Shown here piece after piece: positions 629-55,606 of a stretch of 64,000 bases of DNA (position 1 is its first letter; each line of letters opens with the position of its first letter). The notes below the pieces were generated by a model that worked only from the letters and a program-made list of their open reading frames with translations, was not told where the DNA came from and did no database searches. The position numbers and the translations under genes were made by a program. Origin of the DNA: Hadesarchaea archaeon (GTDB lineage Archaea > Hadarchaeota > Hadarchaeia > Hadarchaeales > Hadarchaeaceae); NCBI GenBank assembly GCA_029259175.1, contig JAPDJH010000009.1, positions 18,123 through 82,122 on the forward strand, in the 5' to 3' direction.

Positions 629-655
629 ATCACCTTGACTATATGCTCGTCCAAT

Positions 656-4348: not shown

Positions 4349-4359
4349 GAAAGTGAGCC

Positions 4360-5460: not shown

Positions 5461-5467
5461 AGCTTGT

Positions 5468-5608: not shown

Positions 5609-5615
5609 GACCCCC

Positions 5616-5843
5616 TCATTTTCTTCTCTCACCGGGCGTATAAGCCCGCCCGGCGAACTTGATCCCACACCGTCGGCACTGCCAGATCGCCGTCCCAACA
5701 CGCCTGAGTTTTTTAGCCTTGCAGTTGGGGCACTCGTACCACTGTTTTGCCTTGGCCTCCACCTCTGCGGCCCTGCGCCTCAAGGTGAAGCCATATCTCG
5801 GACCGTACTTGCCCGCAATCCCGACTTTTTTGGTTCGGCCCAT
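5616..5843 (-). CDS. rpl37ae: Ribosomal protein L37Ae (eL43)
   Basis: 'MGRTKKVGIAGKYGPRYGFTLRRR...YECPNCKAKKLRRVGTAIWQCRRCGIKFAGRAY'. Confidence 0.85.
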   Translation of the reverse strand: MGRTKKVGIAGKYGPRYGFTLRRRAAEVEAKAKQWYECPNCKAKKLRRVGTAIWQCRRCGIKFAGRAYTPGERRK

Positions 5844-11719: not shown

Positions 11720-11772
11720 CCAACCACCTCATTCTCTCGAACACCTTTCCTCTTTTAACTTTACCGAAGGGC

Positions 11773-14595: not shown

Positions 14596-14724
14596 GGATG
14601 TGCACCAAAAGGAATTGAAGGGGCTGTCTAATAAGGATGACCAGGCGAGCGAGGTTGAAAAATTTTTCAAGTGCTCCATTGAAAATCGTTTCAACAAGGA
14701 GGTTAAAGAAAATTCAACGAATTA

Positions 14725-16212: not shown

Positions 16213-17423
16213 ACCATTCGGTCAACAAATGTGTAACCATTGAGTGGAACATTCTCAAATTCTTCGTAAAATTTCTCGATTAAATTCCAAGATTCATTGT
16301 CAAATTCACTAAGCTGAATCAAAACTTTAGTTGCGCCAATTCGTCCGGCTCCTGGTCCACCATGGGCTATGAGCGGACTCCCGTTCTCCTCCGGCTTCAG
16401 CGGGCGCACCCAGCGGTTCTCGCTCGGGATCCACCCGTAGCCCTCCGTCGCGTAGTCCCCGATCCGCACCTGGTTCTCGTTCTCCTCCGGGGCCAGGAAA
16501 ACCCCCTCCAGCACCACGGTCTCGCCGGGCTCCAAGGAACCGAGCGGGTGCCCCTCCTCGTCCAAGGTCGAAATCAGGGCTTTCGCCATTATGTTCTCGT
16601 CCTGGTATGGCTCCTCGACTGTCTTGAAGCGCAGAAACCTGGTTCCCTGTGTAATGACCCAGCGCCCGTTCTCGAACCGCTTTTCCAAGACTGTCTCATC
16701 TCCGCGCTCGATAGCAAGCCTCAACCATACCAGTCTGCTGTAGCGGTTGTTGCCGAGTTCGTTCGGATAGGTGGCCCAAACGGATGGACGCTCCCAGTAG
16801 AGAACGAGCGCCACTTCGTTTTCCTCGAGCCGGTACTCATACGCGTCCTCGTCGTACCAAGCCACGAACTCCCAGCGCTCCCCAGAGTAGACCTCCCGGA
16901 GGTGCTCCGCCTCCTCCGTGCCTTTAACTTTCCAACTCCACATCTGACTTCCCGGCCCAAACCTGTTGTCTGGAATTCCAACTGAGTAGTACCCAACGTG
17001 GGGCCAAGGGAGGTCGAGTTCAAGGCCGCTCAGCACCGGGTCCCCCTCCTCGCCCGCGTACGTGAACGCGCTCACGAAGTGGAAGGGCACCCAGCCCTCG
17101 GGGACGTTCTCGGGGGCGGAGACGGGGGCCGGCTCCCAGCCCGGGATCCCTGCTCCCGCGCTCCACCACACCCAGAGCGCACCCGCGAGCGCGCACGCCG
17201 TCGCGACCGCCGCGCTCCGCTTCGGAGTTCCCGGGCCGAACCCCGCGCTCGCAAACCAGGCGATTCCCAGGACGGCCGCGGCCTGGGCCCACCGCGGGAG
17301 CTCCCCGAACCCCGGGACGAGCGGGAGGAGGAAAAAGGCCGCGAGCCCGGCGACCGCGAAGATCACCGCCACCAAGAACACAGCCGCGACGCGCCAGTTC
17401 ACGGCAGACCCCTCCTCAACCAC
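16209..17423 (-). CDS. Membrane protein, hypothetical (N-terminal TM helices, large C-terminal domain)
   Basis: 404 aa. Four N-terminal hydrophobic helices, then a Trp/Tyr/Glu-rich soluble domain. Convergent with the secreted protein gene, 4 nt overlap. Confidence 0.45.
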   Translation of the reverse strand: MVEEGSAVNWRVAAVFLVAVIFAVAGLAAFFLLPLVPGFGELPRWAQAAAVLGIAWFASAGFGPGTPKRSAAVATACALAGALWVWWSAGAGIPGWEPAPVSAPENVPEGWVPFHFVSAFTYAGEEGDPVLSGLELDLPWPHVGYYSVGIPDNRFGPGSQMWSWKVKGTEEAEHLREVYSGERWEFVAWYDEDAYEYRLEENEVALVLYWERPSVWATYPNELGNNRYSRLVWLRLAIERGDETVLEKRFENGRWVITQGTRFLRFKTVEEPYQDENIMAKALISTLDEEGHPLGSLEPGETVVLEGVFLAPEENENQVRIGDYATEGYGWIPSENRWVRPLKPEENGSPLIAHGGPGAGRIGATKVLIQLSEFDNESWNLIEKFYEEFENVPLNGYTFVDRMV

Positions 17424-18838: not shown

Positions 18839-20188
18839 TCACTTCTTTTTTACCACACTCTCCACCACGCCCGCCGCCCTGCGCAGCAATTCTTTCGCAC
18901 CCGCCTCGTCTTCGGCTTCGGCGGTTACCCTGATATACGGCTCCGTGCCCGAGGGCCTGACGAGCACCCATCCGCTCTCAGCATCAACCCGCACGCCGTC
19001 CGCCGTCGAAATCTCCCCCTTCGCCTCCCGCGGCAGGAGCTCCTCAACCTTTCGCATGACCTCTCCTTTTCGCTCGTTCGGGCACGCGATCTTTTCCCTC
19101 AGCGTCACATAGTCGGGCAGCTCGTCGACCAGCTCAGATAGCTTGCGCCCCGTCGACTCCAGCAGCTCCACCACCTTCAGAGCGGCGAGCGGGCCATCGG
19201 GCGCCAGATGAACCTCCGGAAAGATCCACGAACCGCTGGGCTCGCCTCCGAACACCGCCCTGTGCTCGACCACCGCCTGCGCCACTGCCACGTCACCAAC
19301 CCGAACGCGAACAACGCGGCCTCCCCGCTCCTCGACCGCGTCTTCCACGACCCTCGAGGCGTCGACCGTGGTAACCACCACGTCGCCCGGCTTTTTAACC
19401 TGAAAAGCGGCCATCAAAGCCAGCAACTTATCGCCCACAAACCTTCCCTTCTCGTCAACGGCACCGATGCGATCGGCATCCCCGTCGTGGGCCAGACCCA
19501 CACCAACTCCCAGCTCCCGCACCGTTTTCGCCAAAACCTGCAAGTTTTTCTCATTCGGCTCCAGCCCACGCGCGGGAAACAGCCCATCGGGATTGGAGTT
19601 CAACGCGATGACCTTGCACCCTCGCTCCCTCAGCAGCTGCGGAGTGACGACCGACGCCGCCCCATTGCCGCAGTCCACCACCACCGTGAGCGTACTCTCG
19701 AACCCCACCCTTTCAGCCATAACTTGCTCGTACCGCGAGAGCAAGTCGATTTCTCTACATGTCCCGATCTCGTCCCAGCCGACCGTCCGCCACCGGCGCC
19801 CAAAATAGAGCTCCTCAATCTTCTCCTCCTCAGCCGGTGTGTAGGCCATCCCGTCCCGATTCCAGCATTTCAGGCCGTTGTACTCAGGGGGATTGTGGGA
19901 CGCCGTTATCATGGCGCCCGACTTGGCCCCCACGAGCTTCGTCCCCAGCGCGAGGACGGGGGTGGGAACCATGCCTGCTAGCGCAACATCGCACCCCCCT
20001 GACAGCAAGCCAGCTACGAGCGCGTTCTCGAGCACCGGACCGGATAGCCTCGGGTCGCGGCCAACGACCACCGTCCCAGAATTGCCAAGAACGGTCGCAA
20101 TAACTCGGCCCAAATCCGCAAACAGCTCTGGCGTGATCTCCTTTCCAAATATCCCCCGAACACCGGACGTTCCGAAAAGCTTTCCCAC
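18839..20188 (-). CDS. glmM: Phosphoglucosamine mutase / phosphomannomutase (archaeal GlmM)
   Basis: 'GKLFGTSGVRGIFG', active-site 'TASHNPPEYNGLK', 'DGDADR'. Start set at the GTG at 20186-20188. The longer ATG ORF has an Arg/Ser-rich non-homologous extension. Confidence 0.75.
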   Translation of the reverse strand: MGKLFGTSGVRGIFGKEITPELFADLGRVIATVLGNSGTVVVGRDPRLSGPVLENALVAGLLSGGCDVALAGMVPTPVLALGTKLVGAKSGAMITASHNPPEYNGLKCWNRDGMAYTPAEEEKIEELYFGRRWRTVGWDEIGTCREIDLLSRYEQVMAERVGFESTLTVVVDCGNGAASVVTPQLLRERGCKVIALNSNPDGLFPARGLEPNEKNLQVLAKTVRELGVGVGLAHDGDADRIGAVDEKGRFVGDKLLALMAAFQVKKPGDVVVTTVDASRVVEDAVEERGGRVVRVRVGDVAVAQAVVEHRAVFGGEPSGSWIFPEVHLAPDGPLAALKVVELLESTGRKLSELVDELPDYVTLREKIACPNERKGEVMRKVEELLPREAKGEISTADGVRVDAESGWVLVRPSGTEPYIRVTAEAEDEAGAKELLRRAAGVVESVVKKK

Positions 20189-20201
20189 CCACTGGCCTCC
20201 T

Positions 20202-20810
20202 TCACGAAGCTGAACCCGGACGGGCAAGCAACTTGCTCTTGTAGACCTCCACTCGCCGAATCGGGTGAAAGCGCTTGGCCTCCTTGTAGATGTCCGCAGC
20301 GAGCTTCCCGAGCACCATCTCCTGTACAAACTGGTCGAAGTTGCGCTCGCGTGCTTTCGCCGTCACGACCTCCCGGATGGCCTTGCGTATCTGCTTGACC
20401 TTCGAGCTCTGAGCGCGTCCGAGCGTTATCGCCATGGCAGTCACGCGCAGCGTGTACCCGTCTTTCGTGGTCACCGTGGTTATGTCCTCAGCCTTTCTGC
20501 TCCTGCGCCTGATCTGACTCTTCACGTAATCGCGAGCCATTTCGTGCCCAACAAAATCCGTTTTTGCGTTCGTGTCATCCACCGTTCTGATTTGAAAGTA
20601 TAGCTTGATGTGCGACTTGGAAAAGTCGTTTATCAGATCGCCCAGAGTCGTCTCGAAAACCCTCCCGATGAGGTGCTGAGGATCGGACGCCGGGGTCTCC
20701 CCTATAGGGGTATTGCCGAACATGGAGGGCGCCAGCACCTCGTACCATGCCTTCTCACGCCAGCTCTTGACCCTCTTCCGTCTTTCTGCAGCCGACGCCA
20801 TCTCAACCAC
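20202..20810 (-). CDS. rps3ae: Ribosomal protein S3Ae (eS1)
   Basis: 'RRKRVKSWREKAWYEVLAPSMFGNTPIGETPASDPQHLIGRVFETTLGDL'. Confidence 0.85.
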   Translation of the reverse strand: MVEMASAAERRKRVKSWREKAWYEVLAPSMFGNTPIGETPASDPQHLIGRVFETTLGDLINDFSKSHIKLYFQIRTVDDTNAKTDFVGHEMARDYVKSQIRRRSRKAEDITTVTTKDGYTLRVTAMAITLGRAQSSKVKQIRKAIREVVTAKARERNFDQFVQEMVLGKLAADIYKEAKRFHPIRRVEVYKSKLLARPGSAS

Positions 20811-44584: not shown

Positions 44585-45079
44585 ATGAACAAATCGAATG
44601 CTGACCAACGCGTGCTCCTCTACGATCCACAGCGTTGTACCGGTTGTCGTTGCTGCGAGATGGCGTGTGCCTATCAGAACTTCGGCTCGCTCACGCCAAT
44701 AAAAAGCCACATCCGGATAATCGCGAGCGAGGATGGAATCCACCGCGATGCCGTGTACTGCTGGCACTGCGAGGAACCGGTGTGTGCCGCGGCATGTCCG
44801 GTGGATGCGATAGAAAAGGACGAGCGCACGGGCTGGGTGCGGGTGAATCCGCTTAAATGCATCGGCTGTCGATCGTGCACATATGCATGTCCTGTGGCTG
44901 CCGCATGGTTCGATGAAGATCGGCGGACGGCTGCGAAGTGCACCTTCTGTGACGGGGATCCGCTCTGTGCCCGTTTCTGCTCGCCACAAGCCATACGAGT
45001 CGCCACCCGAGCGGAGGCCTCAGCCGCGCTCAAACAAATTCTCGGAGGTGCCGCGAGTGGAGGCGGAACGAGTCCTTAA
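44585..45079 (+). CDS. Polyferredoxin, four [4Fe-4S]-type Cys clusters (HycB/DmsB-like electron-transfer subunit)
   Basis: 'CTGCRCCEMAC', 'CWHCEEPVCAAACP', 'CIGCRSCTYACP', 'CTFCDGDPLCARFCSP'. Confidence 0.75.
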   Translation: MNKSNADQRVLLYDPQRCTGCRCCEMACAYQNFGSLTPIKSHIRIIASEDGIHRDAVYCWHCEEPVCAAACPVDAIEKDERTGWVRVNPLKCIGCRSCTYACPVAAAWFDEDRRTAAKCTFCDGDPLCARFCSPQAIRVATRAEASAALKQILGGAASGGGTSP

Positions 45080-45701
45080 AGCTGCTGGAGCAATCCAGGT
45101 GGTAAAAAAACGTGATCGAAAAGTGGAAGCCGCGATCAGGCCCGACCGTATACGGACGGTTGCAAGCAAGTTGTGTTCCCATGGCGCACGTTTCATCATC
45201 ATTGCCGCGGCGGATTCGGGGCTCGATATCGACTTGATCTATCACTTTGATTTGGATGGGCTAGTAGTTGCTGTAAAAACGAGAGTGCCTAAAGAGTCCC
45301 CAGAAATCGACTCAATAAAGGATATAGTGCCCGGAGCTGAATGGGCTGAGCGCGAAGCTTCAGATCTCTGCGGTGTACGCTTCCGCGGGGGCACAAACGA
45401 GCCATTGGTTCTTCCCAAAGAGGGTGCTCTGGAGACTCCTCCTCTCACGCGAGCGTTTCGGGTGCTGCCAGCCGAGGTGGCCCCCGTGGCGGAGTCCATT
45501 GCGAGCGTTGGGGCAACAGCCCCGCTGACTTCGCTTATGGAGCGCCGACGCCAAGAGGCAGGACTCGAGGCCAAAGCACCCATGGTCTACGCCACCGAAA
45601 AGGGGACTAAGGAATTGACAGAACTGATCAAGCAAGCCAGCTTCACCGAGCGCGGAGGGTTCGATCCCGAGCGTAAAAAGTTGAGAGGTGTGTACAAGTG
45701 A
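45049..45701 (+). CDS. NuoC/EchD-like 30 kDa hydrogenase subunit with C-terminal extension
   Basis: '...DSIKDIVPGAEWAEREASDLCGVRFRGG' NuoC signature. Start uncertain (GTG near 45049). The ATG ORF from 44883 overlaps the ferredoxin gene. Confidence 0.6.
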
Positions 45702-46567
45702 AGGAGTACGCTGTCTACTGGGGCTGCATGATTCCTCATCGTCTGCCCTCGATAGAAATCGCGGCCAGATATGTGCTCGAAAAGCTTGGTGTTCGGGTGC
45801 GCGAGGTTGAAAACTACACTTGTTGCCCGGATCCGATCATTGGGCGATTTATCGATAGAAAAACTGCCCTGACACTTTCTGCACGCAATCTAGCACTGGC
45901 CGAAGAACTGGGTCCAGAACTTCTAGTTCTCTGTAATGGGTGCTTCGAGACACTGATCGAAGCCGTAGAGGCTCTGCACGATGAAAACACGCGCACTGAA
46001 ATTAACCAAATCCTAGAAAAAGTTGGCAGGAAATACCAAGGAGCTATACAAGTCCGCCACGTGGTAGAAGTGCTGCACGACGATGTTGGGCTAAACCGGA
46101 TAAAAGAGGTCGTTCAGAAGCCATCGAGGGTCAAGCTCGCCGTCCACTACGGATGTCACCTTTTCCGCGAACCCAATGGTGGGGACATCTGGAGGAAACC
46201 AAAACAATTCGAAGAGCTCCTGCGTGTGATCGGAGGCAATCCAGTACTGTGTGACCACAACAGGCTGTGCTGCGGTTTTCCGACGTCACATGTGGATCCG
46301 GAGTATTCGTTGCGCATGAATCTGTTGCCTAAGATGCGGTGCTACAAACAACTAAAAATAGAAGCTGTGGTTACTGTGTGTCCAGCATGCACCATTCAGA
46401 TGGAAACTGGACAGCGCATGCTCCGCAAGTTTGGCTTGGAGACCTCCGTTCCGATAGTTCACTTGATGGAGCTCATGGCACTTGCTTTTGGAATGAGGCC
46501 CCAAGAGCTTTCGCTCAAGGTTCACCGCAGCCCCGTCGAGGATTTTGCTAGGAGGGTGTTCGGATGA
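45698..46567 (+). CDS. HdrB-like protein with two CCG domains
   Basis: 'NYTCCPDPIIG...LCNGCFETL' and 'CHLF...RLCCGFPTSH...VCPACTIQM' duplicated Cys-rich CCG motifs. Start codon overlaps the NuoC-like stop (ATGA-type coupling). Confidence 0.7.
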   Translation: MKEYAVYWGCMIPHRLPSIEIAARYVLEKLGVRVREVENYTCCPDPIIGRFIDRKTALTLSARNLALAEELGPELLVLCNGCFETLIEAVEALHDENTRTEINQILEKVGRKYQGAIQVRHVVEVLHDDVGLNRIKEVVQKPSRVKLAVHYGCHLFREPNGGDIWRKPKQFEELLRVIGGNPVLCDHNRLCCGFPTSHVDPEYSLRMNLLPKMRCYKQLKIEAVVTVCPACTIQMETGQRMLRKFGLETSVPIVHLMELMALAFGMRPQELSLKVHRSPVEDFARRVFG

Positions 46568-47697
46568 GCGAAATCGCGCGCTACGGTCCATATCATCCCA
46601 TCCACCTTGAGCCGGAGGTCTACGAGGTTCATGTTCGCGAAGGCAGGATTTCGGATGTACGTATCGAGCAGGGCTTCACTCACCGGGGGATTGAGCGCCT
46701 TCTAGAGCAGCAGTCAGTGAAGCACGGGGTTCTCTTGGCAGAACGGGTCTGCGGATTGTGCTCTCAGGCCCATGCGGAGGCCTACTGCACTGCGGTGGAA
46801 AACACGCTCAAAATCGAGCCGCCGGAGCGTGCGGCACATATTCGAACGCTTGCTTTCGAGCTCGATCGAATCCATAGCCACCTCATGTGGTTCGTGCTTT
46901 TGTTTCACTCCGTGCGCGACACTGAGGCATTAACCGTGGTGCTGAACCGGCGAGAACGGCTGATGGATCTAATCGAATCGCTGTTCGGGAATCGGGTTCA
47001 CTTCTCCATCAACACTCCGGGTGGGGTAAAACGTGACTTGCCCGCAGATGCGGATCAGCTTGTGCGCCGAACGATGGAGCACGTGCGCAATCTCGCAGAT
47101 TTCGTGAAAAACAAGGTAGAAGCGCACTCGCAACGACTGAGTGGAATCGGTGTATTGCCAAAAGAGAAAGCTAGAGCTTACGGGGTTGTAGGACCTGTGC
47201 TCCGCGGGTCGGGGATCGCCAGCGACATAAGGCGGGACGATCCGTATCTGATCTATGACGAATTGGAGTTTGACATCCCGACGGAGGACTCCTGTGACGT
47301 ACTGGGACGAACGCGTGTGCGGGTTGCCGAGCTCTACGAGTCCATCCGGATAGTTGAGCAGACCGTGAAAAGAATGCCGGTAGGCGAACTCTCGGTGGAG
47401 TTCCCATTCCCGTTGACCAATGAGGACTGCGGGCGAGTGGAGGCTCCCCGTGGAGAGCTCATCTACTTCGCGCGGCTGAGGGGGACCAGCTTTCCGGATC
47501 GTGTGAAGCTCAGACCGCCCACCTATGTCAACGACCCAGCCGTCGCCGAGATGCTCAAAGGAGAACCACTTGAAAATCTGCCGCTAGTCCTCGAGAGCAT
47601 CGACCGCTGCATTTCATGCACTAATCGCGTGACAGTAATTGATGAACAAAACGGGCATGTCAAAAAAATCTCGCTGGAGGATCTGGTGCGATGGTAG
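46564..47697 (+). CDS. Group-4 [NiFe]-hydrogenase large subunit-like protein (EchE/NuoD-type) with intact Ni-Fe ligand motifs
   Basis: 377 aa. 'GPYHPIHLEP' N-terminus. L1 motif 'RVCGLCSQAH' (RxCGxCxxxH) and C-terminal L2 'DRCISCTNR' (DxCxxCxxR), followed by a 22-aa tail. Confidence 0.75.
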   Translation: MSEIARYGPYHPIHLEPEVYEVHVREGRISDVRIEQGFTHRGIERLLEQQSVKHGVLLAERVCGLCSQAHAEAYCTAVENTLKIEPPERAAHIRTLAFELDRIHSHLMWFVLLFHSVRDTEALTVVLNRRERLMDLIESLFGNRVHFSINTPGGVKRDLPADADQLVRRTMEHVRNLADFVKNKVEAHSQRLSGIGVLPKEKARAYGVVGPVLRGSGIASDIRRDDPYLIYDELEFDIPTEDSCDVLGRTRVRVAELYESIRIVEQTVKRMPVGELSVEFPFPLTNEDCGRVEAPRGELIYFARLRGTSFPDRVKLRPPTYVNDPAVAEMLKGEPLENLPLVLESIDRCISCTNRVTVIDEQNGHVKKISLEDLVRW

Positions 47698-48548
47698 ATG
47701 AGCTCCGAGTATATCGGTTCAACGCGGGGTCGTGCAACGGTTGTGATATTGAGGTCGTCAGTGCTCTAGCGGAGCACTACGGTCTTCAAAACGTCCGGGT
47801 GGTAGAAGAGGTGGAAGAGGCAAACACCATGGTAGTTGTGGGTGTCGTAACGACGAAGACCGAGTCCCATCTGAGAGCAGCTTATGAAAAACTCCAAGAT
47901 CCCAAGCTCGTTATTGCCGTGGGGACGTGTGCCGTTTCGAGTGGAGTGTTCGATGGCTCCTACAGTGTCCGGAATCCGCCTGAGACATACATCCCAGTGA
48001 GAGCATATCTAAACGGGTGCCCCCCTAGCCCTCACTCGATCGTCTCAGCTCTCCGCGCCCTTATGGCCCGCCAAGACTCCGAGTGGACAGCGCCCAAGGG
48101 CTACAGGGGATTGCCGGTGGTCGATGCCGAGAAATGCACCGCGTGCGGAGCTTGCGCTATCGCCTGTCCCGCTAGCGCTATCGAAATCGAAGAAGCCGAC
48201 GAAGGCAAAATCGTGCGCTACTTGCACGATCGCTGCATCAGTTGTGCCACCTGCGAGCTCGTGTGTCCGGAGGACGCGGTGAGGCTGAAGGAAGAGCGTC
48301 ATCCGCTGGTGGCGGAACGAGAAAAAGCTAGGGTGGAAACGAAGTTCACAACGGTGCAGTGCCCGGTGTGTGGTAGTGGGCACATAACGGAACGGCATCT
48401 GGACGTGATTGTTGAACGGCTGAAAGAAAAAGAGGCGCTGAAAGCCGCTGCTCAGGAACTGCGCGAGCGATCGAAGCTCGAGAGGACTTGCAAGATAAGG
48501 CAGTTGGCTGTGGGCAAGCAATTGCTTTTTAAGCTCGGCTATGGATAA
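47691..48548 (+). CDS. Group-4 hydrogenase small subunit (HycG/EchC-type) fused to 2x[4Fe-4S] ferredoxin domain (EchF/NuoI-like)
   Basis: 'GSCNGCDIEV' (hydrogenase-type CxxC rather than NuoB CC), 'GTCAVSSGVF', 'NGCPP', then 'CTACGACAIACP' and 'CISCATCELVCP', plus extra 'CPVCGSGH'. Confidence 0.7.
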   Translation: MVDELRVYRFNAGSCNGCDIEVVSALAEHYGLQNVRVVEEVEEANTMVVVGVVTTKTESHLRAAYEKLQDPKLVIAVGTCAVSSGVFDGSYSVRNPPETYIPVRAYLNGCPPSPHSIVSALRALMARQDSEWTAPKGYRGLPVVDAEKCTACGACAIACPASAIEIEEADEGKIVRYLHDRCISCATCELVCPEDAVRLKEERHPLVAEREKARVETKFTTVQCPVCGSGHITERHLDVIVERLKEKEALKAAAQELRERSKLERTCKIRQLAVGKQLLFKLGYG

Positions 48549-48577: not shown

Positions 48578-49609
48578 ATGGCTCTCAAAACCGCTCGATC
48601 GCTTTTCGATCTTGTTGGAAATACTCCTCTTATCCGGATCAACAAGATACCCGAGCGCTGGGGGTTCGGAGATCTGGAACTCTACGGTAAGGCCGAGTTC
48701 ATGAACCCCTCGGGTAGTCTCAAAGATCGTATCATCGCCAAAATCCTTTCGCAGGCAATGAAGGACGGCAGGTTGAAACCGGGGATGACCATAGTGGAGA
48801 GCACGACGGGAAATACTGGGATCTCCACTGCCATGTTCGGTGCCCACCTGGGGCTGAAAGTCATGATTGTGATTCCGGCGGGCATGAGCGCTGAGCGGAT
48901 GAAGACGTTGAAGGCCTTTGGGGCTGAAATCGTTCACGTTCCGGGAGGGGAATCGGATGTGGACTTGGCTGTGGAAAAGGCACGGGAGATCGCGAGGTCC
49001 GATCCGGATCGCTACTTTTTCGTTGACCAGTTCAACAATCCGGCCAACGCGGAGGCTCACTACGAAACCACGGGGCCGGAGATATGGGAGCAAATGGGGG
49101 GTAGGATAGATGCTTTCGTTGCGACCGCGGGGACCGGGGGAACCATCACGGGGGTCGGGAGGTATCTGAAGGAGCGGAACCCGCGCGTCAAGGTCTATGT
49201 CGCTGAGCCGGCCGAGTGCCCGCTGCTTTCCAAGCAGCGCTGGGGCAGCCACAGGATTGAAGGTATCGGGGACGGTTTCATTCCGTCGATTCTGGATCTC
49301 TCCGTTCTGGACGGGGTCATCACGGTGTCGTCCGATGAGGCGATCGAGATGACCCAGCAGCTGATCCGGGAGGAAGGGCTTTTCGTCGGGATCTCGAGCG
49401 GGGCCAATGTCAAGTGCTGTTTGAAGCTCCACCGGCGGCACCCTGAGCTCAGGCGGGTTGTGACCATGCTCAACGACCACGCGTTCAGGTACTTCTCCAC
49501 GCGGCTTTTCGGTGTGAGAAAGGAGCTGAAGGTCCCGGAGCGGCCCCATCCGATCAGCGTCACCCCCGAACAGCGAAGACATCTCTCGCGGCTGGAAATC
49601 ATCGAGTAA
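48578..49609 (+). CDS. cysK: Cysteine synthase / O-acetyl(phospho)serine sulfhydrylase family PLP enzyme
   Basis: 'NPSGSLKDRI' PLP-Lys motif, 'STTGNTGIS', 'GTGGTITG'. Confidence 0.75.
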   Translation: MALKTARSLFDLVGNTPLIRINKIPERWGFGDLELYGKAEFMNPSGSLKDRIIAKILSQAMKDGRLKPGMTIVESTTGNTGISTAMFGAHLGLKVMIVIPAGMSAERMKTLKAFGAEIVHVPGGESDVDLAVEKAREIARSDPDRYFFVDQFNNPANAEAHYETTGPEIWEQMGGRIDAFVATAGTGGTITGVGRYLKERNPRVKVYVAEPAECPLLSKQRWGSHRIEGIGDGFIPSILDLSVLDGVITVSSDEAIEMTQQLIREEGLFVGISSGANVKCCLKLHRRHPELRRVVTMLNDHAFRYFSTRLFGVRKELKVPERPHPISVTPEQRRHLSRLEIIE

Positions 49610-49749: not shown

Positions 49750-49876
49750 GCCGGGGTAGCTCAGATGGTTAGAGCGCCAGACTCATAGCCTCGAAGCGCG
49801 GCTGTGAGTGCTGATCCCGCGAGATGATGGGTGAGAAATCTGGAGGTCGCGGGTTCGAGTCCCGCCCCCGGCACCA
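49750..49876 (+). tRNA. tRNA(CAU) (elongator Met or Ile2) with 50-nt intron after position 37, CCA encoded
   Basis: Acceptor GCCGGGG/CCCCGGC, D-arm GCTCAGATGGTTAGAGC, anticodon stem CCAGA/TCTGG with loop CUCAUA, intron 49788-49837, T-arm GCGGGTTCGAGTCCCGC, ACCA. G1:C72 and the anticodon stem are not initiator-like. Confidence 0.7.
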
Positions 49877-51804: not shown

Positions 51805-51879
51805 GCCGCCGTAGCTGAGCCTGGTTACAGCGGCCGCCTTGTAAGCGGCAGATCGTGGGTTCAAATCCCACCGGCGGCT
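51805..51879 (+). tRNA. tRNA-Thr(UGU)
   Basis: Acceptor GCCGCCG/CGGCGGC, anticodon stem GCCGC/GCGGC with loop CTTGTAA, T-arm GTGGGTTCAAATCCCAC, discriminator T, CCA not encoded. Its 3' end is repeated twice downstream. Confidence 0.75.
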
Positions 51880-51881
51880 CA

Positions 51882-52112
51882 TTACAACTTCTCCAACAGC
51901 TCAAAGAACCTCTCTCGGGTAAGCTCCGCCTCCCGGATTATCGCCCGCACGAGCGCTGGCTTGATCTCCCTATCCGGATGGACCGGGATAACGGTACGCA
52001 CGTTCTCTTTCATCAGGATAACGTGGGGACCCTTCCTCCTAACAATTCGAAATCCTTCATGGATCAATATCTTGATGAGCTTCTCAGCTGGAACAGGCCC
52101 GATTTTAGGCAT
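51882..52112 (-). CDS. hicA: HicA toxin (mRNA interferase)
   Basis: 76 aa. 'KLIKILIHEGFRIVRRKGPHVILMKENVRTVIPVHPDREIKPALVRAIIREAEL'. Confidence 0.7.
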   Translation of the reverse strand: MPKIGPVPAEKLIKILIHEGFRIVRRKGPHVILMKENVRTVIPVHPDREIKPALVRAIIREAELTRERFFELLEKL

Positions 52113-52359
52113 GAACCTCTACTTTTTGTAATCCAACAACTGACTGCGCCATTTTGAGAACTTCTGATTTCTCCTCTTCATCAAGGGTTTCCAAGTAGAG
52201 TTCGATTGCCTCCTCAACATTTTTCATCAACTCTTCGAGCGTTTCGCCTTGCGTGTGGCACCCTGGCAGGGAAGGAACAAACGCCACGTAACCGCCCGTC
52301 TCATCCTTTTGAACCACTACATCGAACATCAATCTCTTGGCCATGTCTTTCCCAACCAC
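52105..52359 (-). CDS. hicB: HicB antitoxin
   Basis: 84 aa. 'MFDVVVQKDETGGYVAFVPSLPGCHTQGETLEELMKNVEEAIELYLE'. 8-nt overlap with hicA. Confidence 0.7.
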   Translation of the reverse strand: MVGKDMAKRLMFDVVVQKDETGGYVAFVPSLPGCHTQGETLEELMKNVEEAIELYLETLDEEEKSEVLKMAQSVVGLQKVEVHA

Positions 52360-52452
52360 TCTATGTAAACCAGAGTATAAAATCTATGGGAAGTTCCAGC
52401 ACGAGCAATCGTCCGTGTTTGACAAGCAGTAGGGAATAGACAAGAGGAATCT

Positions 52453-52490
52453 CTGTCCTTCCTCTTTCATTAAGACCACCGGCGGCTCCA
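52453..52490 (+). repeat. Direct repeat A of tRNA-Thr 3' end (att-like site)
   Basis: 'ctgtccttcctctttcattaagaCCACCGGCGGCTCca'. The last 13-15 nt match the 3' end of the tRNA-Thr at 51805-51879. The whole 38 nt are near-identical to repeat B. Confidence 0.55.
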
Positions 52491-52517
52491 CGAACACAGT
52501 AAATTATTTAAATTTTG

Positions 52518-52529
52518 AAACAATTGTTT
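52518..52529. promoter_or_regulatory. Perfect 12-bp palindrome AAACAATTGTTT in AT-rich promoter 5 nt upstream of the wHTH-MNT start (putative autoregulatory operator)
   Basis: Read directly. Embedded in 'taaattatttaaattttgAAACAATTGTTTtaaatATG'. Confidence 0.4.
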
Positions 52530-52534
52530 TAAAT

Positions 52535-53083
52535 ATGAAACATCTAGACGAAAAGGCTTTGAAGGTGCTCACCTACTTCTTTGAGAACCCGCGAGAAGAA
52601 GTTTACCTGCGGGAACTGGCACGCCGGCTACGGATGAGCCCAGCAACTGTTATGCGAGCCCTACGTCTCCTCATTAGAGAAGGCTTGATAACCAAGCGCC
52701 CGGAGAAGCACGCCACCTATTTCAAGGCCAACCTTAACCCATACTTCAGAGAGTTGAAGAAAGCGCATACGGTTTCCAAAGTCTTGCGCTCCGGAATTCT
52801 TGAACTCATCAACGAGAAATCGGTAGGTCTAAGTTCAATACTGCTCTACGGGAGCGCCGCTAAAGGCGAAGACGATCGGGGAAGCGACTACGACTTTCTG
52901 GTGATTGCCGCAAGATGCGCCCTGAGAAGCAGTGAACTCTCGAAACTTCTAGGGAGAGAGGCCACCCTACAGGTCTTCGACGTGGCGGGCTGGAAACGAG
53001 TAGCAAAGCGAAACCGAGCATTCTACCTAGACGTTATAAGCAATTCCATTGTCCTTTATGGTGGAAAGCCGGTGATCGATTGA
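52535..53083 (+). CDS. wHTH-fused minimal nucleotidyltransferase (MntA-like antitoxin)
   Basis: N-terminal 'VYLRELARRLRMSPATVMRALRLLIREGLI' wHTH, then 'LLYGSAAKGEDDRGSDYDFLV' GS-x9-DxD NTase motif. Confidence 0.7.
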   Translation: MKHLDEKALKVLTYFFENPREEVYLRELARRLRMSPATVMRALRLLIREGLITKRPEKHATYFKANLNPYFRELKKAHTVSKVLRSGILELINEKSVGLSSILLYGSAAKGEDDRGSDYDFLVIAARCALRSSELSKLLGREATLQVFDVAGWKRVAKRNRAFYLDVISNSIVLYGGKPVID

Positions 53084-53520
53084 CGCTTAGGGATTGTCTT
53101 GCGCAAAGGAAGTTGCGCAGGATACGGCCGGATCCGCTCAAAGCCCGCAAATCGCTGGAAGCTGCGTCTGCAAAACTGAAAAAGGCCAAGGAACTCCTCG
53201 CCGATGAGCATTACGATGCAACCCTTCTGTACGCGTACACGAGCATGTTCAGCTCGGGAAGAGCTCTCCTTTACAAGGACGGCATCCAAGAGAAATCCCA
53301 CTACTGTTTGGCTAGGTATCTAGAGGAGAGGTACGTGAAGAGAGGAAAGTTGAATCCAAAGATCATCACCTTCCTCGACTCTTTCCGTGAGGAGCGGCAC
53401 GCGATAATGTATGGGTTCGAGGAGGTTGAAATCCGGCGCGAAGAGGCTGAGGAAGCCATCTCGGTTGCGGAAGAATTCCTTGGGAGAGCTAAAGAACTCG
53501 TGGGTAAGCGTACGCGCTGA
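53080..53520 (+). CDS. HEPN-domain protein (HepT-like toxin partner)
   Basis: 146 aa all-alpha. 'SFREERHAIMYG' R-x(3-4)-H HEPN-like motif near the C-terminus. 4-nt overlap with the MNT gene. Confidence 0.55.
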   Translation: MTLRDCLAQRKLRRIRPDPLKARKSLEAASAKLKKAKELLADEHYDATLLYAYTSMFSSGRALLYKDGIQEKSHYCLARYLEERYVKRGKLNPKIITFLDSFREERHAIMYGFEEVEIRREEAEEAISVAEEFLGRAKELVGKRTR

Positions 53521-53599
53521 ATGAAGAAGCTTGCTATTGCTTATCGTCTTTGGTTCTCTGCCGTGGTTTCTGTCCTTATACTTTTGATAGGAAGCCCAC

Positions 53600-53673
53600 T
53601 AGTGGCTCCACTATATTTTTTAATAAATAGTTAACTTAATATATAGTTAAGTTTTAGGAATAACGGTGTTGAG
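53600..53673 (+). promoter_or_regulatory. AT-rich promoter with TATA-like box and direct repeat ATAGTTAA(N9)TAGTTAA upstream of the 305-aa MNT-fusion gene
   Basis: 'ctatattttttaataaATAGTTAActtaatataTAGTTAAgttttaggaataacggtgttgagATG'. GTTAAC is also palindromic. Confidence 0.35.
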
Positions 53674-54591
53674 ATGTGGCCTGCTGAATGGCTAGCAGAG
53701 AAATACTTTGAGATCAAAGAGCTGCCGCGAATAGTCGATCGAAACATGGTTGCAAAAATTTGGAAAACTAACAAAAACTACGCGAGTGTCACCTTGCACG
53801 AGATGCGCGAAGCTTTACTTATAGACAGATTGAAGAGAGGAGCATATCTATCGGTACCGCCTGAGAAATGGCTGCCGGTGCACTCGTTCCTGATGCGAAC
53901 TCCAGAAATCGCTCCAGCTCTATCTAAACTATTACAGGACTCGATGAACGATATTGAGTGTCTGGTGCTCTATGGCTCGCGGATTTGGGGGGGAGATGAG
54001 CTAAGCGACTGGGATTTCTTCACCGTTGTTTCCTCCGAAAAGTCGAAGAATGCGATGAGGACCAAACTCCTCAAAATCAGGCAAACAAATCTTCGACTTG
54101 ATGTGGAGATATTGTCTGTTCAAGACTTCGAGTTTCTCCTACGCAAAGACCCGATTTTTCTCAAACTCGTAGCGTGCGAGTGCAGGCCCATAGTAGATAC
54201 TGGTATTCTTGGAATTGCCAAGGCAATCGAGATTAAACCAGAACACGTTGCCGTTGAAATGTTGGCCGCGAAAGAAAATATTCTACAGGGCATGGCATGC
54301 GCGCGACGAGGCGAAAGCAGTATCGCCTGCTACTGGCTCACCCGCGGGATCCGGCGAACGCTTGCTGCGGCCCTCTCCATGTGTGAAAACTTCTCCGGGA
54401 AAGCTTTGGAAGAGGAATTCAAAGCACGTTTTCCTCAGTATGAGCAACTTCGGGTGATCGTTAAAAAAATTGGCTTGGAACGAGAAACACATATACCAAA
54501 AAAATTCCTTAGAGAACTTGTTAACAGAACAATAGTCGAGTGGGAACTGGTAGCAAAGGAGTTGCGCAGATGGGGAAAAAGCGCAAAATAA
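53674..54591 (+). CDS. wHTH-nucleotidyltransferase fused to a C-terminal ~170-aa helical domain (possible degenerate HEPN). Single-chain MNT-HEPN-like protein
   Basis: 'VTLHEMREALLIDRLKRGAYL' wHTH-like, 'LVLYGSRIWGGDELSDWDFFTV' NTase motif, long helical C-terminus without a clear Rx4-6H. Confidence 0.5.
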   Translation: MWPAEWLAEKYFEIKELPRIVDRNMVAKIWKTNKNYASVTLHEMREALLIDRLKRGAYLSVPPEKWLPVHSFLMRTPEIAPALSKLLQDSMNDIECLVLYGSRIWGGDELSDWDFFTVVSSEKSKNAMRTKLLKIRQTNLRLDVEILSVQDFEFLLRKDPIFLKLVACECRPIVDTGILGIAKAIEIKPEHVAVEMLAAKENILQGMACARRGESSIACYWLTRGIRRTLAAALSMCENFSGKALEEEFKARFPQYEQLRVIVKKIGLERETHIPKKFLRELVNRTIVEWELVAKELRRWGKSAK

Positions 54592-54848
54592 AGAAACCAG
54601 CAGCGCTTCTGGCACAAAGAAAAGCACACTTGCAACTTGCAGAGGAATTTTCCAAACTCGTACCAACTGAAGTAATTAAACATTGGGAAAAAGAGGCCGA
54701 GCGCTTCGAACGCGAAGCTAGACGGCTTATGACAGGGTTACCCACGAGCTACCTAGAAGAAATAGAAAAGATAAGTGATGAAGAAGCGAAAAAGCTCTTA
54801 CGAAGGAAGCGAAAAGAGATAATCTAGACATTCGCGTAGCGAATCTTC

Positions 54849-54888
54849 TGTCCTTTACTTTCATTAAGGATCCCACCGGCGGCTCCAC
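54849..54888 (+). repeat. Direct repeat B of tRNA-Thr 3' end (att-like site)
   Basis: 'ctgtcctttactttcattaaggATCCCACCGGCGGCTCca'. 16 nt identical to the tRNA-Thr 3' end, with CCA encoded here but not in the intact gene. Confidence 0.55.
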
Positions 54889-54935
54889 AAAAAATAGTTT
54901 ATAGGTAAGGATTTCTTACATTAATTAGTGATGGG

Positions 54936-55187
54936 ATGAAAGGAAGCGTGGTAAAAATTACCTCAAAAGGACAACTTACCCTCCCCGTGGAAATCCGGAG
55001 AGAGTTAGGGGTTAGGAAAGACGATTATCTTTACGTCACAAGAGCTGGTGAGCTAATTCTGATGAAGCGGATCGGAGTGAATCCTAAGGAAATTTTAGAT
55101 ACCTTTCAGCAAGTCGCAAAGGAGAGCGGGCTGACGAGAAAAGAACTAAACCGGGTCATCCGCGAGATCAGGCGGGCAAAAGAATGA
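54936..55187 (+). CDS. vapB: AbrB/SpoVT-family antitoxin (VapB-like)
   Basis: 'VKITSKGQLTLPVEIRRELGVRKDDYLYV' swapped-hairpin motif. Confidence 0.7.
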   Translation: MKGSVVKITSKGQLTLPVEIRRELGVRKDDYLYVTRAGELILMKRIGVNPKEILDTFQQVAKESGLTRKELNRVIREIRRAKE

Positions 55188-55606
55188 ATAAAAAGCCAAG
55201 AGTTTTCTTGGACACGAACGTTTTGATATCGGGAATGGTATTCAGAGGAAACGAGAGGAAACTGCTGGACGCGATTATTGATAACCGATTGAAACTGGTA
55301 ATAAGCGACGATGTTTTGAACGAAACAGAAATGGTCTTCAGGAAAAAATTCCCGCAGCACCGTGTTCTTTTCCCGTTATTTTTGCAGCTCGTGAAGCACG
55401 AAAGAATACCGAGAAAAGCGTATAGAAAAGCCGAAAAGACATATTCTGGACTCCTCCGTGACAAAACAGACGCCCACATCCTTGCGGCCGCTGTCGTGGG
55501 CAAGTGCGATTATCTAATTGCCGGCGACAAAGAACTCCTTTCCCTGAAGAAAGTTGGTCTCACAAAAATAATTCAAACGTGGGAGTTGCTGAGAGAATTG
55601 AAATAA
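55184..55606 (+). CDS. vapC: PIN-domain ribonuclease toxin (VapC)
   Basis: 'VFLDTNVLISG' and 'AHILAAAVVGKCDYLIAGD' PIN acidic residues. 4-nt overlap with vapB. Confidence 0.8.
   Translation: MNKKPRVFLDTNVLISGMVFRGNERKLLDAIIDNRLKLVISDDVLNETEMVFRKKFPQHRVLFPLFLQLVKHERIPRKAYRKAEKTYSGLLRDKTDAHILAAAVVGKCDYLIAGDKELLSLKKVGLTKIIQTWELLRELK

Follow-up and report, generated by a model that had tools for sequence, protein, structure and literature searches.

The operon at positions 44,585 to 48,548 of a 64,000-nucleotide stretch of Hadarchaeota DNA (the window) encodes what is, in our moderately confident view, a five-subunit cytoplasmic complex, in which a group-4 (FHL/Mbh-type) [NiFe]-hydrogenase is reduced to its peripheral arm through loss of the membrane module and is connected to HdrB. 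The proposed reaction, H2 + R-S-S-R' → R-SH + R'-SH, would proceed without ion translocation and without bifurcation, and presumably in the direction written. A soluble H2-linked disulfide reductase, as suggested in the initial annotation, is the best-supported reading. None of the five proteins has a predicted transmembrane helix (Kyte-Doolittle 19-residue means peak at 1.48), membrane-subunit genes are missing nearby, and both HdrB and the [NiFe] site are present. The fully membrane-less, fused form seems to be undescribed in the literature searched.

Operon layout and subunit identities

Gene calling places five overlapping genes on the plus strand, exactly where the initial annotation had them (Table 1). 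The first two overlap by 23 nt, and the sequence GGAGGTG is located 8-14 nt upstream of the GTG start of the NuoC-like gene. A TATA-like hexamer 24-29 nt upstream of the ferredoxin (Fd) ATG, inside the 42-nt gap that follows tatD, is a candidate archaeal promoter from which the transcript would be near-leaderless. The proposed subunit inventory was borne out by motifs read directly and by Pfam matches for every product: Fer4_11 (Fd), Complex1_30kDa (NuoC-like), two CCG domains (HdrB-like), Complex1_49kDa and NiFeSe_Hases (large subunit), and Oxidored_q6 and Fer4 (small subunit). Pfam searches likewise returned TatD and a PALP/CysK-like gene as the operon's neighbours, matching the flanks first assigned.

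Table 1. Coordinates of the operon's genes and sequence features within the window.
Feature	Position	Strand	Details
TATA-like hexamer TTATAA	44556..44561	+	read directly from sequence; A-rich stretch before it
Fd (HycB/CooF-type ferredoxin) gene	44585..45079	+	164 aa
NuoC-like gene	45057..45701	+	214 aa; start codon GTG per gene caller
HdrC-like C-terminal arm of NuoC-like subunit	45468..45698	+	residues ~138-214, ~75 residues
HdrB-like gene	45698..46567	+	overlap with NuoC-like gene, 4 nt
Large-subunit gene	46564..47697	+	overlap with HdrB-like gene, 4 nt
L1 Ni-Fe motif RVCGLCSQAH	46744..46773	+	residues 61-70; ligands C63, C66
L2 Ni-Fe motif DRCISCTNR	47602..47628	+	residues 347-355; ligands C349, C352
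C-terminal extension of large subunit	47629..47694	+	22 residues; aligns with HycI-cleaved peptide of HycE (7z0s_E)
Small-subunit gene	47691..48548	+	overlap with large-subunit gene, 7 nt
Small-subunit domain (HycG/MbhJ/NuoB-like)	47691..48080	+	MbhJ 6cfw_J, E = 8e-23
Fused HycF/NuoI-like domain	48081..48548	+	2x[4Fe-4S], 8 Cys; HycF 7z0s_F residues 25-159, E = 1e-14; PRK12387

The large subunit scores 216 bits against HycE (7z0s_E) and 203 bits against MbhL (6cfw_L), compared with at most 166 bits against the MBS subunit 6u8y_L (annotated as NuoD) and complex I NuoD chains. Both Ni-Fe ligand motifs are intact, as originally claimed, and their four cysteines are invariant among 28 orthologs. 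Two non-ligand positions set the L2 motif apart from the canonical [DE][PL]Cx[AGST]Cx[DE][RL] (P to R and D to N), and these deviations are kept in the Hadarchaeota branch. Alignment with membrane-bound forms reveals no obvious deletions. The C-terminal extension had been overlooked at first reading and is missing from the NC10 orthologs; given its resemblance to that of HycE, a maturation protease is probably required, and its gene must lie elsewhere. The small subunit is a HycG-type domain fused to an EchF/NuoI-like domain, as first described. It carries the CNGC motif, four cysteines (C15, C18, C80 and C110) provide for its proximal cluster, and three more conserved cysteines (C224, C227 and C267) lie in the tail of the HycF/NuoI-like domain.

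The HdrB-like subunit, correctly identified as a protein with two CCG domains, matches solved HdrB (5odc_B) over its full length with 219 bits (E = 7e-64). All 10 CCG cysteines are present and are kept in 17/17 related loci. TIGR03288 matches with 252 bits, under the NCBIfam equivalog cut-off of 345, and the match to SdhE is weaker at 126 bits. Judged by these similarities, the subunit appears to be a full HdrB, far closer to genuine HdrB than to any other CCG family.

The Fd subunit had been called a 16-Cys polyferredoxin. Sixteen cysteines do fall in four [4Fe-4S] motifs, all kept in 17/17 related loci; the total is 17, and the protein's HycB/CooF nature had been missed. Of solved proteins, the AOR Fe-S subunit 8c0z_C is closest to it (E = 1e-28), and WOR5 6x6u_B, HDCR HycB3 and FHL HycB are further relatives. 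We predict that it is a four-[4Fe-4S] electron-transfer protein of the HycB/CooF/AorA type.

The NuoC-like subunit (NuoC/EchD/MbhK-like) stands as annotated in its N-terminal part, and its HdrC-like tail is an addition to that description. Positions 5-143 of the family profile match NuoC chains of MBS, MBH and complex I (E ~1e-14). Positions 142-219 of the profile (A2) match residues 106-183 of the 184-residue HdrC 5odc_C (E = 4.8e-12) and also 8rvu_c (E = 3e-10); the window's single sequence alone reaches E = 2e-3 against HdrC. With a tail-only HMM, each HdrB-linked locus proved to carry an HdrC-like module directly upstream of hdrB, as part of NuoC in some and as a small ORF of its own in others. 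By profile comparison, the tail and the C-terminal arm of HdrC are homologous, and the tail probably acts as the docking arm for HdrB. An AF2 model of the subunit is confident over residues 1-110 (pLDDT ~90) and of low confidence in the tail, as expected of a partner-dependent arm.

Membrane-less relatives in three phyla

We refer to loci that encode Fd, NuoC with the tail, HdrB, the large subunit and the small-HycF fusion, and that lack NuoH and NuoL, as type A. They occur in Hadarchaeales (L003), a JGI metagenome contig (L005), Bathyarchaeia (L007 and L012-L014) and NC10 bacteria (L036; the contig of a second NC10 locus, L027, ends within the first gene). Archaeal loci have the window's gene order, and in NC10 the small-HycF fusion comes first. 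At least nine loci in three phyla share this membrane-less five-gene layout amid unrelated genomic neighbours. Their large subunits group as a clade in a neighbour-joining tree (bootstrap 99/100). The clade is rare, is found in Hadarchaeota, Bathyarchaeia and NC10 bacteria, and is accompanied by neither NuoH nor antiporter genes. The N-terminal RKKSPW segment, present in all membrane-bound forms compared, is missing from type A small subunits, whereas E88 and H154, putative proton-path residues of HdrB, are kept throughout type A.

The nearest clusters of a different build (L015-L017, L021 and L023, from Bathyarchaeia and Asgard) share the exact window order of Fd, NuoC with HdrC tail, HdrB and large subunit, and retain NuoH and antiporters, with HycF and the small subunit encoded by separate genes. 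Set beside these sister clusters, the type A loci, with their RKKSPW segment gone, bear signs of having lost a membrane interface. Their large subunits are 39-41% identical to that of the window, as are their HdrB proteins (39-41%). Ehd-like large subunits adjoin the window's clade in the tree; the grouping of all HdrB-linked large subunits as one clade is weak (bootstrap 18/100).

The window and 10 kb beyond each end (~84 kb of contig) contain no NuoH, NuoL, Mrp, hyp or hycI genes, which extends beyond the window's edges the earlier observation that no membrane subunit or maturation protease lies nearby. HycI, HypA, NikR and ZIP genes are found near the clusters of relatives, a sign of a real Ni enzyme.

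Predicted electron path and alternative readings

Electrons would leave the [NiFe] site of the large subunit and pass through the proximal [4Fe-4S] cluster of the small-subunit domain, the two clusters of the fused HycF/NuoI-like domain and the four clusters of the HycB-type ferredoxin. HdrB, held by the HdrC-like arm of the NuoC-like subunit, would be the terminal module of the wire. We infer this order of clusters, and place the ferredoxin between HycF and HdrB by analogy with FHL and HdrABC. The complex is presumably soluble. FdhF, CODH, HdrA and flavoproteins are not encoded with the cluster, and its sole catalytic sites are [NiFe] and HdrB. Hadarchaeota are mostly non-methanogenic. The substrate in this host is probably not CoM-S-S-CoB, and may be a protein-bound or small-molecule disulfide. 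Electron transfer from H2 to disulfide is exergonic, but only modestly if CoM-S-S-CoB has an E0' of -281 mV (PMC12054007), and an uncoupled enzyme would thus be sensible at low H2. Several points count against the proposal: an uncoupled H2:disulfide reaction wastes energy, membrane subunits could be encoded beyond the ~84 kb of contig inspected, the type A cluster of L003 has a Mbh-type membrane hydrogenase close by, the HdrB score is under the equivalog cut-off, and the large subunit shows no obvious deletions.

It is possible, though unlikely, that the Fd subunit is an entry port for reduced ferredoxin or a docking oxidoreductase, in which case the complex would work chiefly as a ferredoxin:disulfide reductase that evolves H2 as an overflow valve, instead of taking H2 up. 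Group-4 enzymes characterised so far usually oxidise low-potential donors and evolve H2, and the closest solved relatives of the Fd subunit (AorA, WOR5 and HycB) are wires between catalytic modules. However, donor modules (FdhF, CODH, AOR) are absent in all nine type A loci, and with HdrB ending the wire the complex already has all that an H2:disulfide enzyme needs. The literature on Ehd and Drh also proposes H2 oxidation (PMC9723716).

We consider it slightly less probable still that this is an ordinary, Ehd-like membrane-bound energy-converting hydrogenase whose NuoH-like and antiporter-like genes lie elsewhere in a genome viewed in part. Every described relative is membrane-associated, the large subunit shows no obvious deletions against membrane-bound forms, and in L003 a Mbh-type membrane hydrogenase lies 1.3 kb upstream of the type A cluster. 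That Mbh-type cluster, however, has its own complete small/large/NuoC/Fer set. The recurrence of the membrane-less layout across phyla, the loss of RKKSPW together with the HycF fusion, and ~84 kb of contig free of NuoH and Mrp genes also argue against membrane attachment.

The sub-cut-off HdrB score, the SdhE match, and the GcvH-like carrier and dihydrolipoamide-dehydrogenase-like genes near related clusters (GcvH was raised by Kohtz et al. as a possible disulfide carrier for Ehe; PMC9723716) could suggest that the subunit acts on another substrate, as do the CCG proteins SdhE/TfrB, LutA and GlcF, or that the module joins a larger bifurcating assembly with HdrA elsewhere, but this is very improbable given the far greater full-length similarity to genuine HdrB, the retention of E88, H154 and all 10 cysteines, the lack of a flavoprotein partner common to type A clusters and the absence of GcvH from the 64-kb window. 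The earlier suggestion of a link to bifurcation finds no counterpart in the gene content, as HdrA, MvhD and flavoproteins are absent from the cluster, the window and related type A loci.

Relation to described hydrogenases

HdrB-coupled group-4 [NiFe]-hydrogenases have been predicted from genomes as Ehd, Ehe, Ehg, Drh and Ehd-like complexes, all described as membrane-associated (PMC9723716, PMC6046458). The initial claim that the combination matches no described hydrogenase type was therefore overstated. Drh, for one, already lacks an antiporter. To these archaeal enzymes the window adds a soluble-looking, compact five-gene variant. Ehd and Ehd-like complexes, from Methanomethylicia, Bathyarchaeia and Culexarchaeia (Borrel 2019, Kohtz 2022, PMC9723716), share with the window a group-4 large subunit whose Ni-Fe cysteines are intact, encoded next to hdrB and to a ferredoxin gene that bears the label 'hdrC' and is the counterpart of the window's Fd gene. 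They have NuoH-like, antiporter-like and separate HycF-like and small subunits, whereas the window has no membrane genes and a small-HycF fusion without RKKSPW. The Methanomethylicaceae Ehd (L075) has NuoC joined to the large subunit, with an ORF of its own for the HdrC-like tail.

Drh, the 'disulfide-reducing hydrogenase' of Methanocella (Lyu & Lu 2015; PMC6046458), likewise combines a group-4-type hydrogenase with HdrB. Its proposed role is the direct reduction of a disulfide by H2, with no ion gradient being formed (PMC9723716, PMC6046458), and it is upregulated in syntrophic low-H2 coculture (PMC6046458). Its eight genes, drhG-F-D-E-C-hdrB-drhH-drhB (PMC9723716 Suppl. File 5), include DrhB, which from the Ech-style lettering would be an EchB-like membrane subunit, and the complex is called 'putative membrane-associated'. 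Drh is set apart here by gene list and description; Methanocella is absent from the 79 distinct loci kept in our genome scan and from the NuoC-plus-tail profile search list. Its small and F subunits are separate genes, its gene order is unlike the window's, and its host is a methanogen that produces CoM-S-S-CoB.

Among solved structures, the soluble arm of E. coli FHL (HycB-HycF-HycG-HycE; 7Z0S) and P. furiosus MBH (6CFW) are the best relatives of the window's large, small and HycF-like parts, with the same kind of [4Fe-4S] wire and, in HycE, a like C-terminal extension. The Fd subunit is clearly related to FHL HycB, its top match being AOR 8c0z_C. Unlike these complexes, the window has neither FdhF nor membrane subunits (HycC/D, MbhM/H), its NuoC domain forms a protein of its own that bears an HdrC tail, and HdrB is terminal. 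MvhADG-HdrABC (5ODC) also links H2 oxidation to HdrB, and the C-terminal arm of its HdrC is homologous to the NuoC tail. Its hydrogenase belongs to group 3 (3c), whereas that of the window belongs to group 4. The window lacks the HdrA, FAD and MvhD of that complex, which argues against flavin-based bifurcation, and the HdrC ferredoxin domain of HdrABC is replaced by the four-cluster HycB-type protein.

Composition of the cluster and group-4 membership

The operon at positions 44585-48548 comprises five overlapping genes (table below), and its coordinates, Pfam domains and overlaps agree with the composition first proposed for it. A TATA-like TTATAA lies 24-29 nt 5' of the first ATG. Rfam and tRNA scans returned nothing within the operon, and Pfam assigns the flanking genes to TatD and PALP/CysK-like families, as the initial annotation had them. 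No hydrophobic stretch compatible with a transmembrane helix occurs in any of the five proteins (19-residue Kyte-Doolittle mean ≤1.48). The absence of nearby membrane-subunit and maturation-protease genes was borne out, with no NuoH, NuoL, Mrp, hyp or hycI gene in the 64-kb window or within 10 kb past either end. The CysK-like PALP gene, which starts 29 nt past the small-subunit stop on the same strand, may be co-transcribed with the operon; this neighbour is not kept in related loci.

Coordinates of the five-gene operon, its surroundings and selected genes at related loci (L handles)
Locus	Feature	Coordinates	Strand	Length	Assignment or remark
Window	Ferredoxin (Fd)	44585-45079	+	164 aa	Fer4_11
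Window	NuoC-like	45057-45701	+	214 aa	Complex1_30kDa; GTG start, GGAGGTG upstream; 23-nt overlap with Fd
Window	HdrB-like	45698-46567	+	289 aa	CCG x2; 4-nt overlap with NuoC-like
Window	Large subunit	46564-47697	+	377 aa	Complex1_49kDa + NiFeSe_Hases; 4-nt overlap with HdrB-like
Window	Small subunit	47691-48548	+	285 aa	Oxidored_q6 + Fer4; 7-nt overlap with large subunit
Window	Cysteine-bearing tail of small subunit	48360-48548			residues ~224-285
Window	CysK-like	48578-49609	+		PALP
Window	tRNA	49750-49873	+	124 nt	Rfam, 63 bits
Window	tRNA-Thr(TGT)	51805-51880	+
Window	Toxin-antitoxin island	~51880-55600			HicA/HicB, HTH + HEPN, MazE + PIN
Window	ORF	18839-20329	-	496 aa	no Pfam family on record
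L090 (same contig)	SepRS	14476-16053
L003	Mbh/Mrp-type hydrogenase	1-5352
L003	HycI, ParA/Mrp-like, HypA	14055-15685
L005	ZIP metal transporter	12021-12746
L005	NikR	14680-15081
L007 (L007/L008)	GcvH-like	5211-5804
L014	GcvH-like	16689-17393
L043	GcvH-like	8018-8479
L079	GcvH-like	4273-4722
L036 (NC10)	Dihydrolipoamide-dehydrogenase-like	11236-12810
L027 (NC10)	Dihydrolipoamide-dehydrogenase-like	3631-5241

By definition, group-4 hydrogenases are membrane-bound converters of energy; they are related to complex I. The best solved relatives of the large subunit are HycE of formate hydrogenlyase (FHL; 216 bits) and MbhL (203 bits). Lower scores go to 6u8y_L, the MBS subunit annotated NuoD (166 bits), to complex I NuoD chains (≤166 bits) and to group 1 enzymes (~58 bits, over the N-terminus only). 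The large subunit is therefore nearer to HycE and MbhL than to NuoD or groups 1-3. Its L1 motif, RVCGLCSQAH, is canonical (CGLCSQAH fits C[GS][ILV]C[AGNS]xxH), and its L2 motif, DRCISCTNR, contains both cysteines and departs at two non-ligand positions from the quoted consensus [DE][PL]Cx[AGST]Cx[DE][RL] (PMC7886697). Both motifs had been called intact, and 28 orthologs all share C63, C66, C349 and C352. Since all four Ni-Fe cysteines are invariant, an Ehr/Fpo-like non-hydrogenase is ruled out. The 22-residue extension past the L2 arginine aligns with the C-terminal peptide of HycE that is cleaved by HycI, so a maturation protease is probably needed, and none is encoded nearby. We looked in the large subunit for deletions marking a lost membrane interface and found none that was obvious. 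The small subunit is short and has a proximal four-cysteine cluster only (CxxC...C...CP), as in group 4. Integral membrane subunits of the NuoH/EchB-like and NuoL/EchA/Mrp-like kinds are absent from the cluster, from the window and from the 10 kb past either end.

The N-terminal half of the small subunit matches MbhJ (E = 8e-23) and HycG and carries the proximal cluster (C15, C18, C80, C110); residues ~134-270 match HycF (7z0s_F residues 25-159, E = 1e-14) and contain two [4Fe-4S] motifs, in agreement with its description as a HycG-type protein fused to a 2x[4Fe-4S] domain. In this small::HycF fusion the NuoB C-terminus runs into "PxG(F/Y)R", with which the HycF-like protein begins. The fused protein is rare, with about 10-12 full-length matches among 1.84 billion 50%-identity representatives. 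In loci with the membrane-less layout of the window (type A), the small subunit lacks the N-terminal "(R)KKSPW(I/L)xH" that is kept in all membrane-bound relatives, both HdrB-linked (type B) and non-HdrB. Three extra cysteines in the HycF-like tail (C224, C227 and C267; CPVCGSGH...C) are kept in 9/9 orthologs of type A and may make up a further metal site. The Fd subunit belongs to the four-cluster wires of the HycB/CooF/AorA family, with 8c0z_C as its best match (E = 1e-28), followed by WOR5, HDCR HycB3 and FHL HycB. It had been described as a 16-Cys polyferredoxin; 16 cysteines do lie in four motifs, which are kept in 17/17 loci, but the total is 17.

The HdrB-like subunit and an HdrC-like arm on NuoC

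The HdrB-like subunit aligns end to end with the solved HdrB 5odc_B (219 bits, E = 7e-64). All ten cysteines of its two CCG domains (C10, C42, C43, C79, C82 and C153, C191, C192, C228, C231) are present and are kept in 17/17 loci, as the initial assignment of two such domains implied. TIGR03288 matches at 252 bits, under the 345-bit NCBIfam equivalog cut-off. The protein also keeps E88 and H154, which by numbering would be equivalent to the HdrB residues named as a proton path in the M. maripaludis structure (PMC13518236).

HdrC, the partner of HdrB, is represented only by its C-terminal arm, fused to NuoC, a homology missed in the initial annotation. The NuoC-like protein is ~70 residues longer than ordinary NuoC/MbhK. 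In a profile built from 12 orthologs, positions 5-143 match NuoC chains, and positions 142-219 match HdrC in its C-terminal region, outside the ferredoxin domain (5odc_C residues 106-183/184, E = 4.8e-12; 8rvu_c, E = 3e-10). As a single sequence, the window protein matches HdrC at E = 2e-3, with a weak match to TIGR03290. With a tail-only HMM, the module is recovered immediately 5' of hdrB in each of the HdrB-linked hydrogenase loci analysed. The tail is fused to NuoC in type A, in the membrane-bound type of Bathyarchaeia and in one Asgard locus; it is a stand-alone 96-aa ORF in L079, and in L043, L075 and L078 short separate ORFs of 120-189 aa beside hdrB carry it at their C-terminus. In the HdrABC structure of Wagner et al. 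2017, the matching part of HdrC reportedly lies on HdrB, and we infer that the NuoC tail docks HdrB. The ferredoxin-domain role of HdrC is presumably taken over by the four-cluster Fd subunit. An AF2 model of the NuoC-like protein has a confident core (pLDDT ~90) and a poor tail (53-76, few helices), which fits an arm that would fold on a partner; with the tail at low confidence, the model gives no structural confirmation of the arm. The NuoC+HdrC-tail fusion suggests a concrete mechanism of module recombination, in which a docking arm travels with HdrB.

Relatives and previously predicted HdrB-linked hydrogenases

Relatives of the large subunit at 43-99% identity fall into roughly 50 clusters at 90% identity, with source names in Hadarchaeales, Hodarchaeaceae and Bathyarchaeia. 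Kae1 similarity assigns the host to Hadarchaeota, its best named relatives (76% identity) being Hadesarchaea/Hadarchaeales. Layouts were compared using precomputed Pfam contexts, a scan of one genome per GTDB species and phmmer synteny maps. Type A loci have Fd, NuoC+tail, HdrB, large subunit (375-378 aa outside NC10) and small::HycF, in this order except in NC10 and without NuoH or NuoL. They occur in Hadarchaeales (L003), a JGI metagenome contig (L005), Bathyarchaeia (L007, L012-L014) and NC10/Methylomirabilota (L036), and no NuoH/NuoL-type membrane subunit lies within ±10 kb in L005, L007, L013, L014 or L036. Adjoining genes vary by locus. Type B loci, found in Bathyarchaeia (L015-L017, L021) and Asgard (L023), have Fd, NuoC+tail, HdrB and large subunit, then NuoH and separate HycF-like and small subunits, with antiporter genes nearby. 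Gene arrangement has diverged further in L078, L079 and L075, the last being the Methanomethylicaceae Ehd locus.

In a neighbour-joining tree, type A large subunits form one clade (bootstrap 99/100) containing a Hadarchaeota branch (99/100) and a Bathyarchaeia+NC10 branch (92/100). The bacterial clusters thus nest in an archaeal clade beside Bathyarchaeia, which suggests inter-domain transfer. In L036 the genes are reordered, with small::HycF first, and the 361-aa large subunit has no C-terminal extension; in L027, the second NC10 type A locus, the contig ends inside the first gene. All HdrB-linked large subunits lie on one side of the tree, and because the bipartition uniting them has a bootstrap of 18/100, we do not claim their monophyly. 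We relate type A to Ehd-like clusters on the basis of the gene order and the NuoC+tail that they have in common.

Some type A neighbours concern nickel. In L005 a ZIP metal transporter directly follows the cluster and NikR lies 3 kb downstream; in L003 the stretch 3-5 kb downstream encodes HycI, a ParA/Mrp-like protein and HypA. In some genomes, then, the cluster is accompanied by nickel-supply and maturation genes, which fits a real nickel enzyme. In the L003 MAG the type A cluster coexists with a membrane-bound group-4 hydrogenase of the Mbh/Mrp type, which lies 1.3 kb upstream with two opposite-strand genes in between. Another Hadarchaeota locus, L045, has Fd, NuoC (201 aa), large and small (193 aa) subunits and no hdrB, with nuoH and nuoL on the opposite strand.

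The window system belongs to a known kind, the HdrB-associated group-4 hydrogenases predicted from genomes, and its description as an undescribed hydrogenase type was overstated. Kohtz et al. (PMC9723716) cover Ehd of Methanomethylicia (from Borrel 2019), Ehe of Culexarchaeia, which comes with GcvH, SdhA, CdhA and HdrA2B2C2, Ehg of Nezhaarchaeia, accompanied by FdhF, HdrA and MvhD, Drh of Methanocella, and an 'Ehd-like' cluster that includes Bathyarchaeia sequences; every one of them is described as bound to or associated with the membrane. Ehg is expressed in a cultured Methanonezhaarchaeia strain (PMC12700198), and Qi et al. 2021 reported hdrB2 inside "fpo" operons of some Bathyarchaeia. Ehd, Ehe and Ehd-like clusters share with the window an hdrB and a ferredoxin ('hdrC') gene inside the group-4 cluster, and the 'EhdD/hdrC' counterpart in L075 matches the window Fd at 120 bits. 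They differ in having antiporter and NuoH-like subunits (found in L015-L017, L021, L023, L075, L078 and L079), which are absent in the window. In the tree, which contains no Ehe or Drh references, type A lies beside L075 and type B, with weak support (18/100) for the uniting bipartition.

Drh ("disulfide-reducing hydrogenase", Lyu & Lu 2015) is "putative membrane-associated"; it lacks an antiporter, keeps DrhB, and is proposed to reduce CoM-S-S-CoB by H2 without building a gradient (PMC9723716, PMC6046458). It is upregulated in low-H2 syntrophic coculture (PMC6046458). Judging from the Ech-style gene names, DrhB (gene list, PMC9723716 Suppl. File 5) would be an EchB-like membrane anchor, whereas the window has no EchB/NuoH-like gene. 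Methanocella is not among the 79 distinct loci kept from the one-genome-per-GTDB-species scan or the matches listed by the NuoC+tail profile, so Drh is set apart by its published description only. Three traits set the system apart: it has no membrane module, its small::HycF fusion is truncated at the N-terminus, and its NuoC bears an HdrC arm, the last being common to the membrane-bound Bathyarchaeia and Asgard forms. In the literature accessible outside subscription journals, we found neither a membrane-less, HdrB-linked enzyme of group 4 from Hadarchaeota or Bathyarchaeia, the five-gene form included, nor a description of either fusion.

Proposed reaction, substrate and genomic surroundings

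Apart from the [NiFe] site and the non-cubane clusters of HdrB, the operon encodes no catalytic centre, and seven conventional [4Fe-4S] clusters lie between these two. The soluble H2-linked disulfide enzyme of the initial annotation is plausible. In the most likely mechanism, by analogy with FHL (HycE-HycG-HycF-HycB) and HdrABC (HdrC-HdrB), electrons would pass from the [NiFe] site to the proximal cluster, through the two HycF-domain clusters and the four clusters of the HycB-type subunit, and on to HdrB, which the NuoC tail would anchor. The net conversion, H2 + RSSR' -> RSH + R'SH, would take place in the cytoplasm and involve neither ion pumping nor flavin-based bifurcation. The E0' of CoM-S-S-CoB has been put at about -281 mV rather than -138 mV (PMC12054007). 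At such a potential the driving force from H2 would be modest, and almost nil at low H2, so an uncoupled H2 scavenger or thiol-regenerating system would be sensible.

It is possible that the four-cluster subunit is instead a port for reduced ferredoxin, making the enzyme mainly a ferredoxin:disulfide reductase or an H2-evolving valve, but no donor module is conserved. A weakly supported reading is that HdrB acts on a non-disulfide substrate or within a larger HdrA-containing assembly. Membrane genes encoded elsewhere in the genome are unlikely, given a layout conserved in three phyla, the lost N-terminal segment of the small subunit and the small::HycF fusion. Bifurcation, also raised initially, is unsupported and was rejected, since HdrA, MvhD and any such flavoprotein are all absent; MvhADG-HdrABC differs in having the HdrA flavoprotein and MvhD, neither of which is found in the cluster, the window or type A loci.

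For H2-dependent disulfide reduction, neighbouring genes may hold a clue to the substrate. GcvH-like (lipoyl-carrier) genes lie near HdrB-linked hydrogenase clusters of several archaea (L007, L014, L043 and L079), and in both NC10 loci the cluster is directly followed by a flavoprotein gene for a 524-aa pyridine-nucleotide-disulfide oxidoreductase resembling dihydrolipoamide dehydrogenase. GcvH has been raised as a possible disulfide carrier for Ehe (PMC9723716). Both lipoyl-type genes were searched for in the window and are absent, so this clue is a lead only. We put forward tentatively, as a proposal that could well prove wrong, that type A is the first truly cytosolic group-4 class, a five-subunit membrane-free H2:disulfide oxidoreductase of non-methanogenic Hadarchaeota and Bathyarchaeia that was passed to NC10, whose NuoC captured an HdrB-binding HdrC arm and whose substrate is not CoM-S-S-CoB but another disulfide, possibly a lipoyl/GcvH-type carrier. 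Were this true, it would offer a compact and manageable system for finding the 'orphan' disulfide of Hdr-containing non-methanogens, and would bear on which disulfide Hdr-type enzymes use in non-methanogenic archaea. A conserved lineage in which the membrane arm has been lost and the peripheral arm is connected to HdrB would show the modularity of this machinery and provide a natural example of a free-standing group-4 peripheral arm. A soluble five-subunit enzyme would also be a far easier target for expression, activity assays and cryo-EM than the predicted 9-15-subunit membrane complexes Ehd, Ehe and Ehg.

Several features of the surrounding DNA lie apart from the operon. The 124-nt tRNA recognized by Rfam was missed by ARAGORN and is probably an intron-containing archaeal tRNA. 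A tRNA-Thr and a toxin-antitoxin island follow it, and the 496-aa ORF lies in a G+C-rich (~0.60) stretch. On the same contig, ~4 kb beyond the window start, is a gene for O-phosphoseryl-tRNA synthetase (SepRS), a marker usually tied to methanogens and their relatives.
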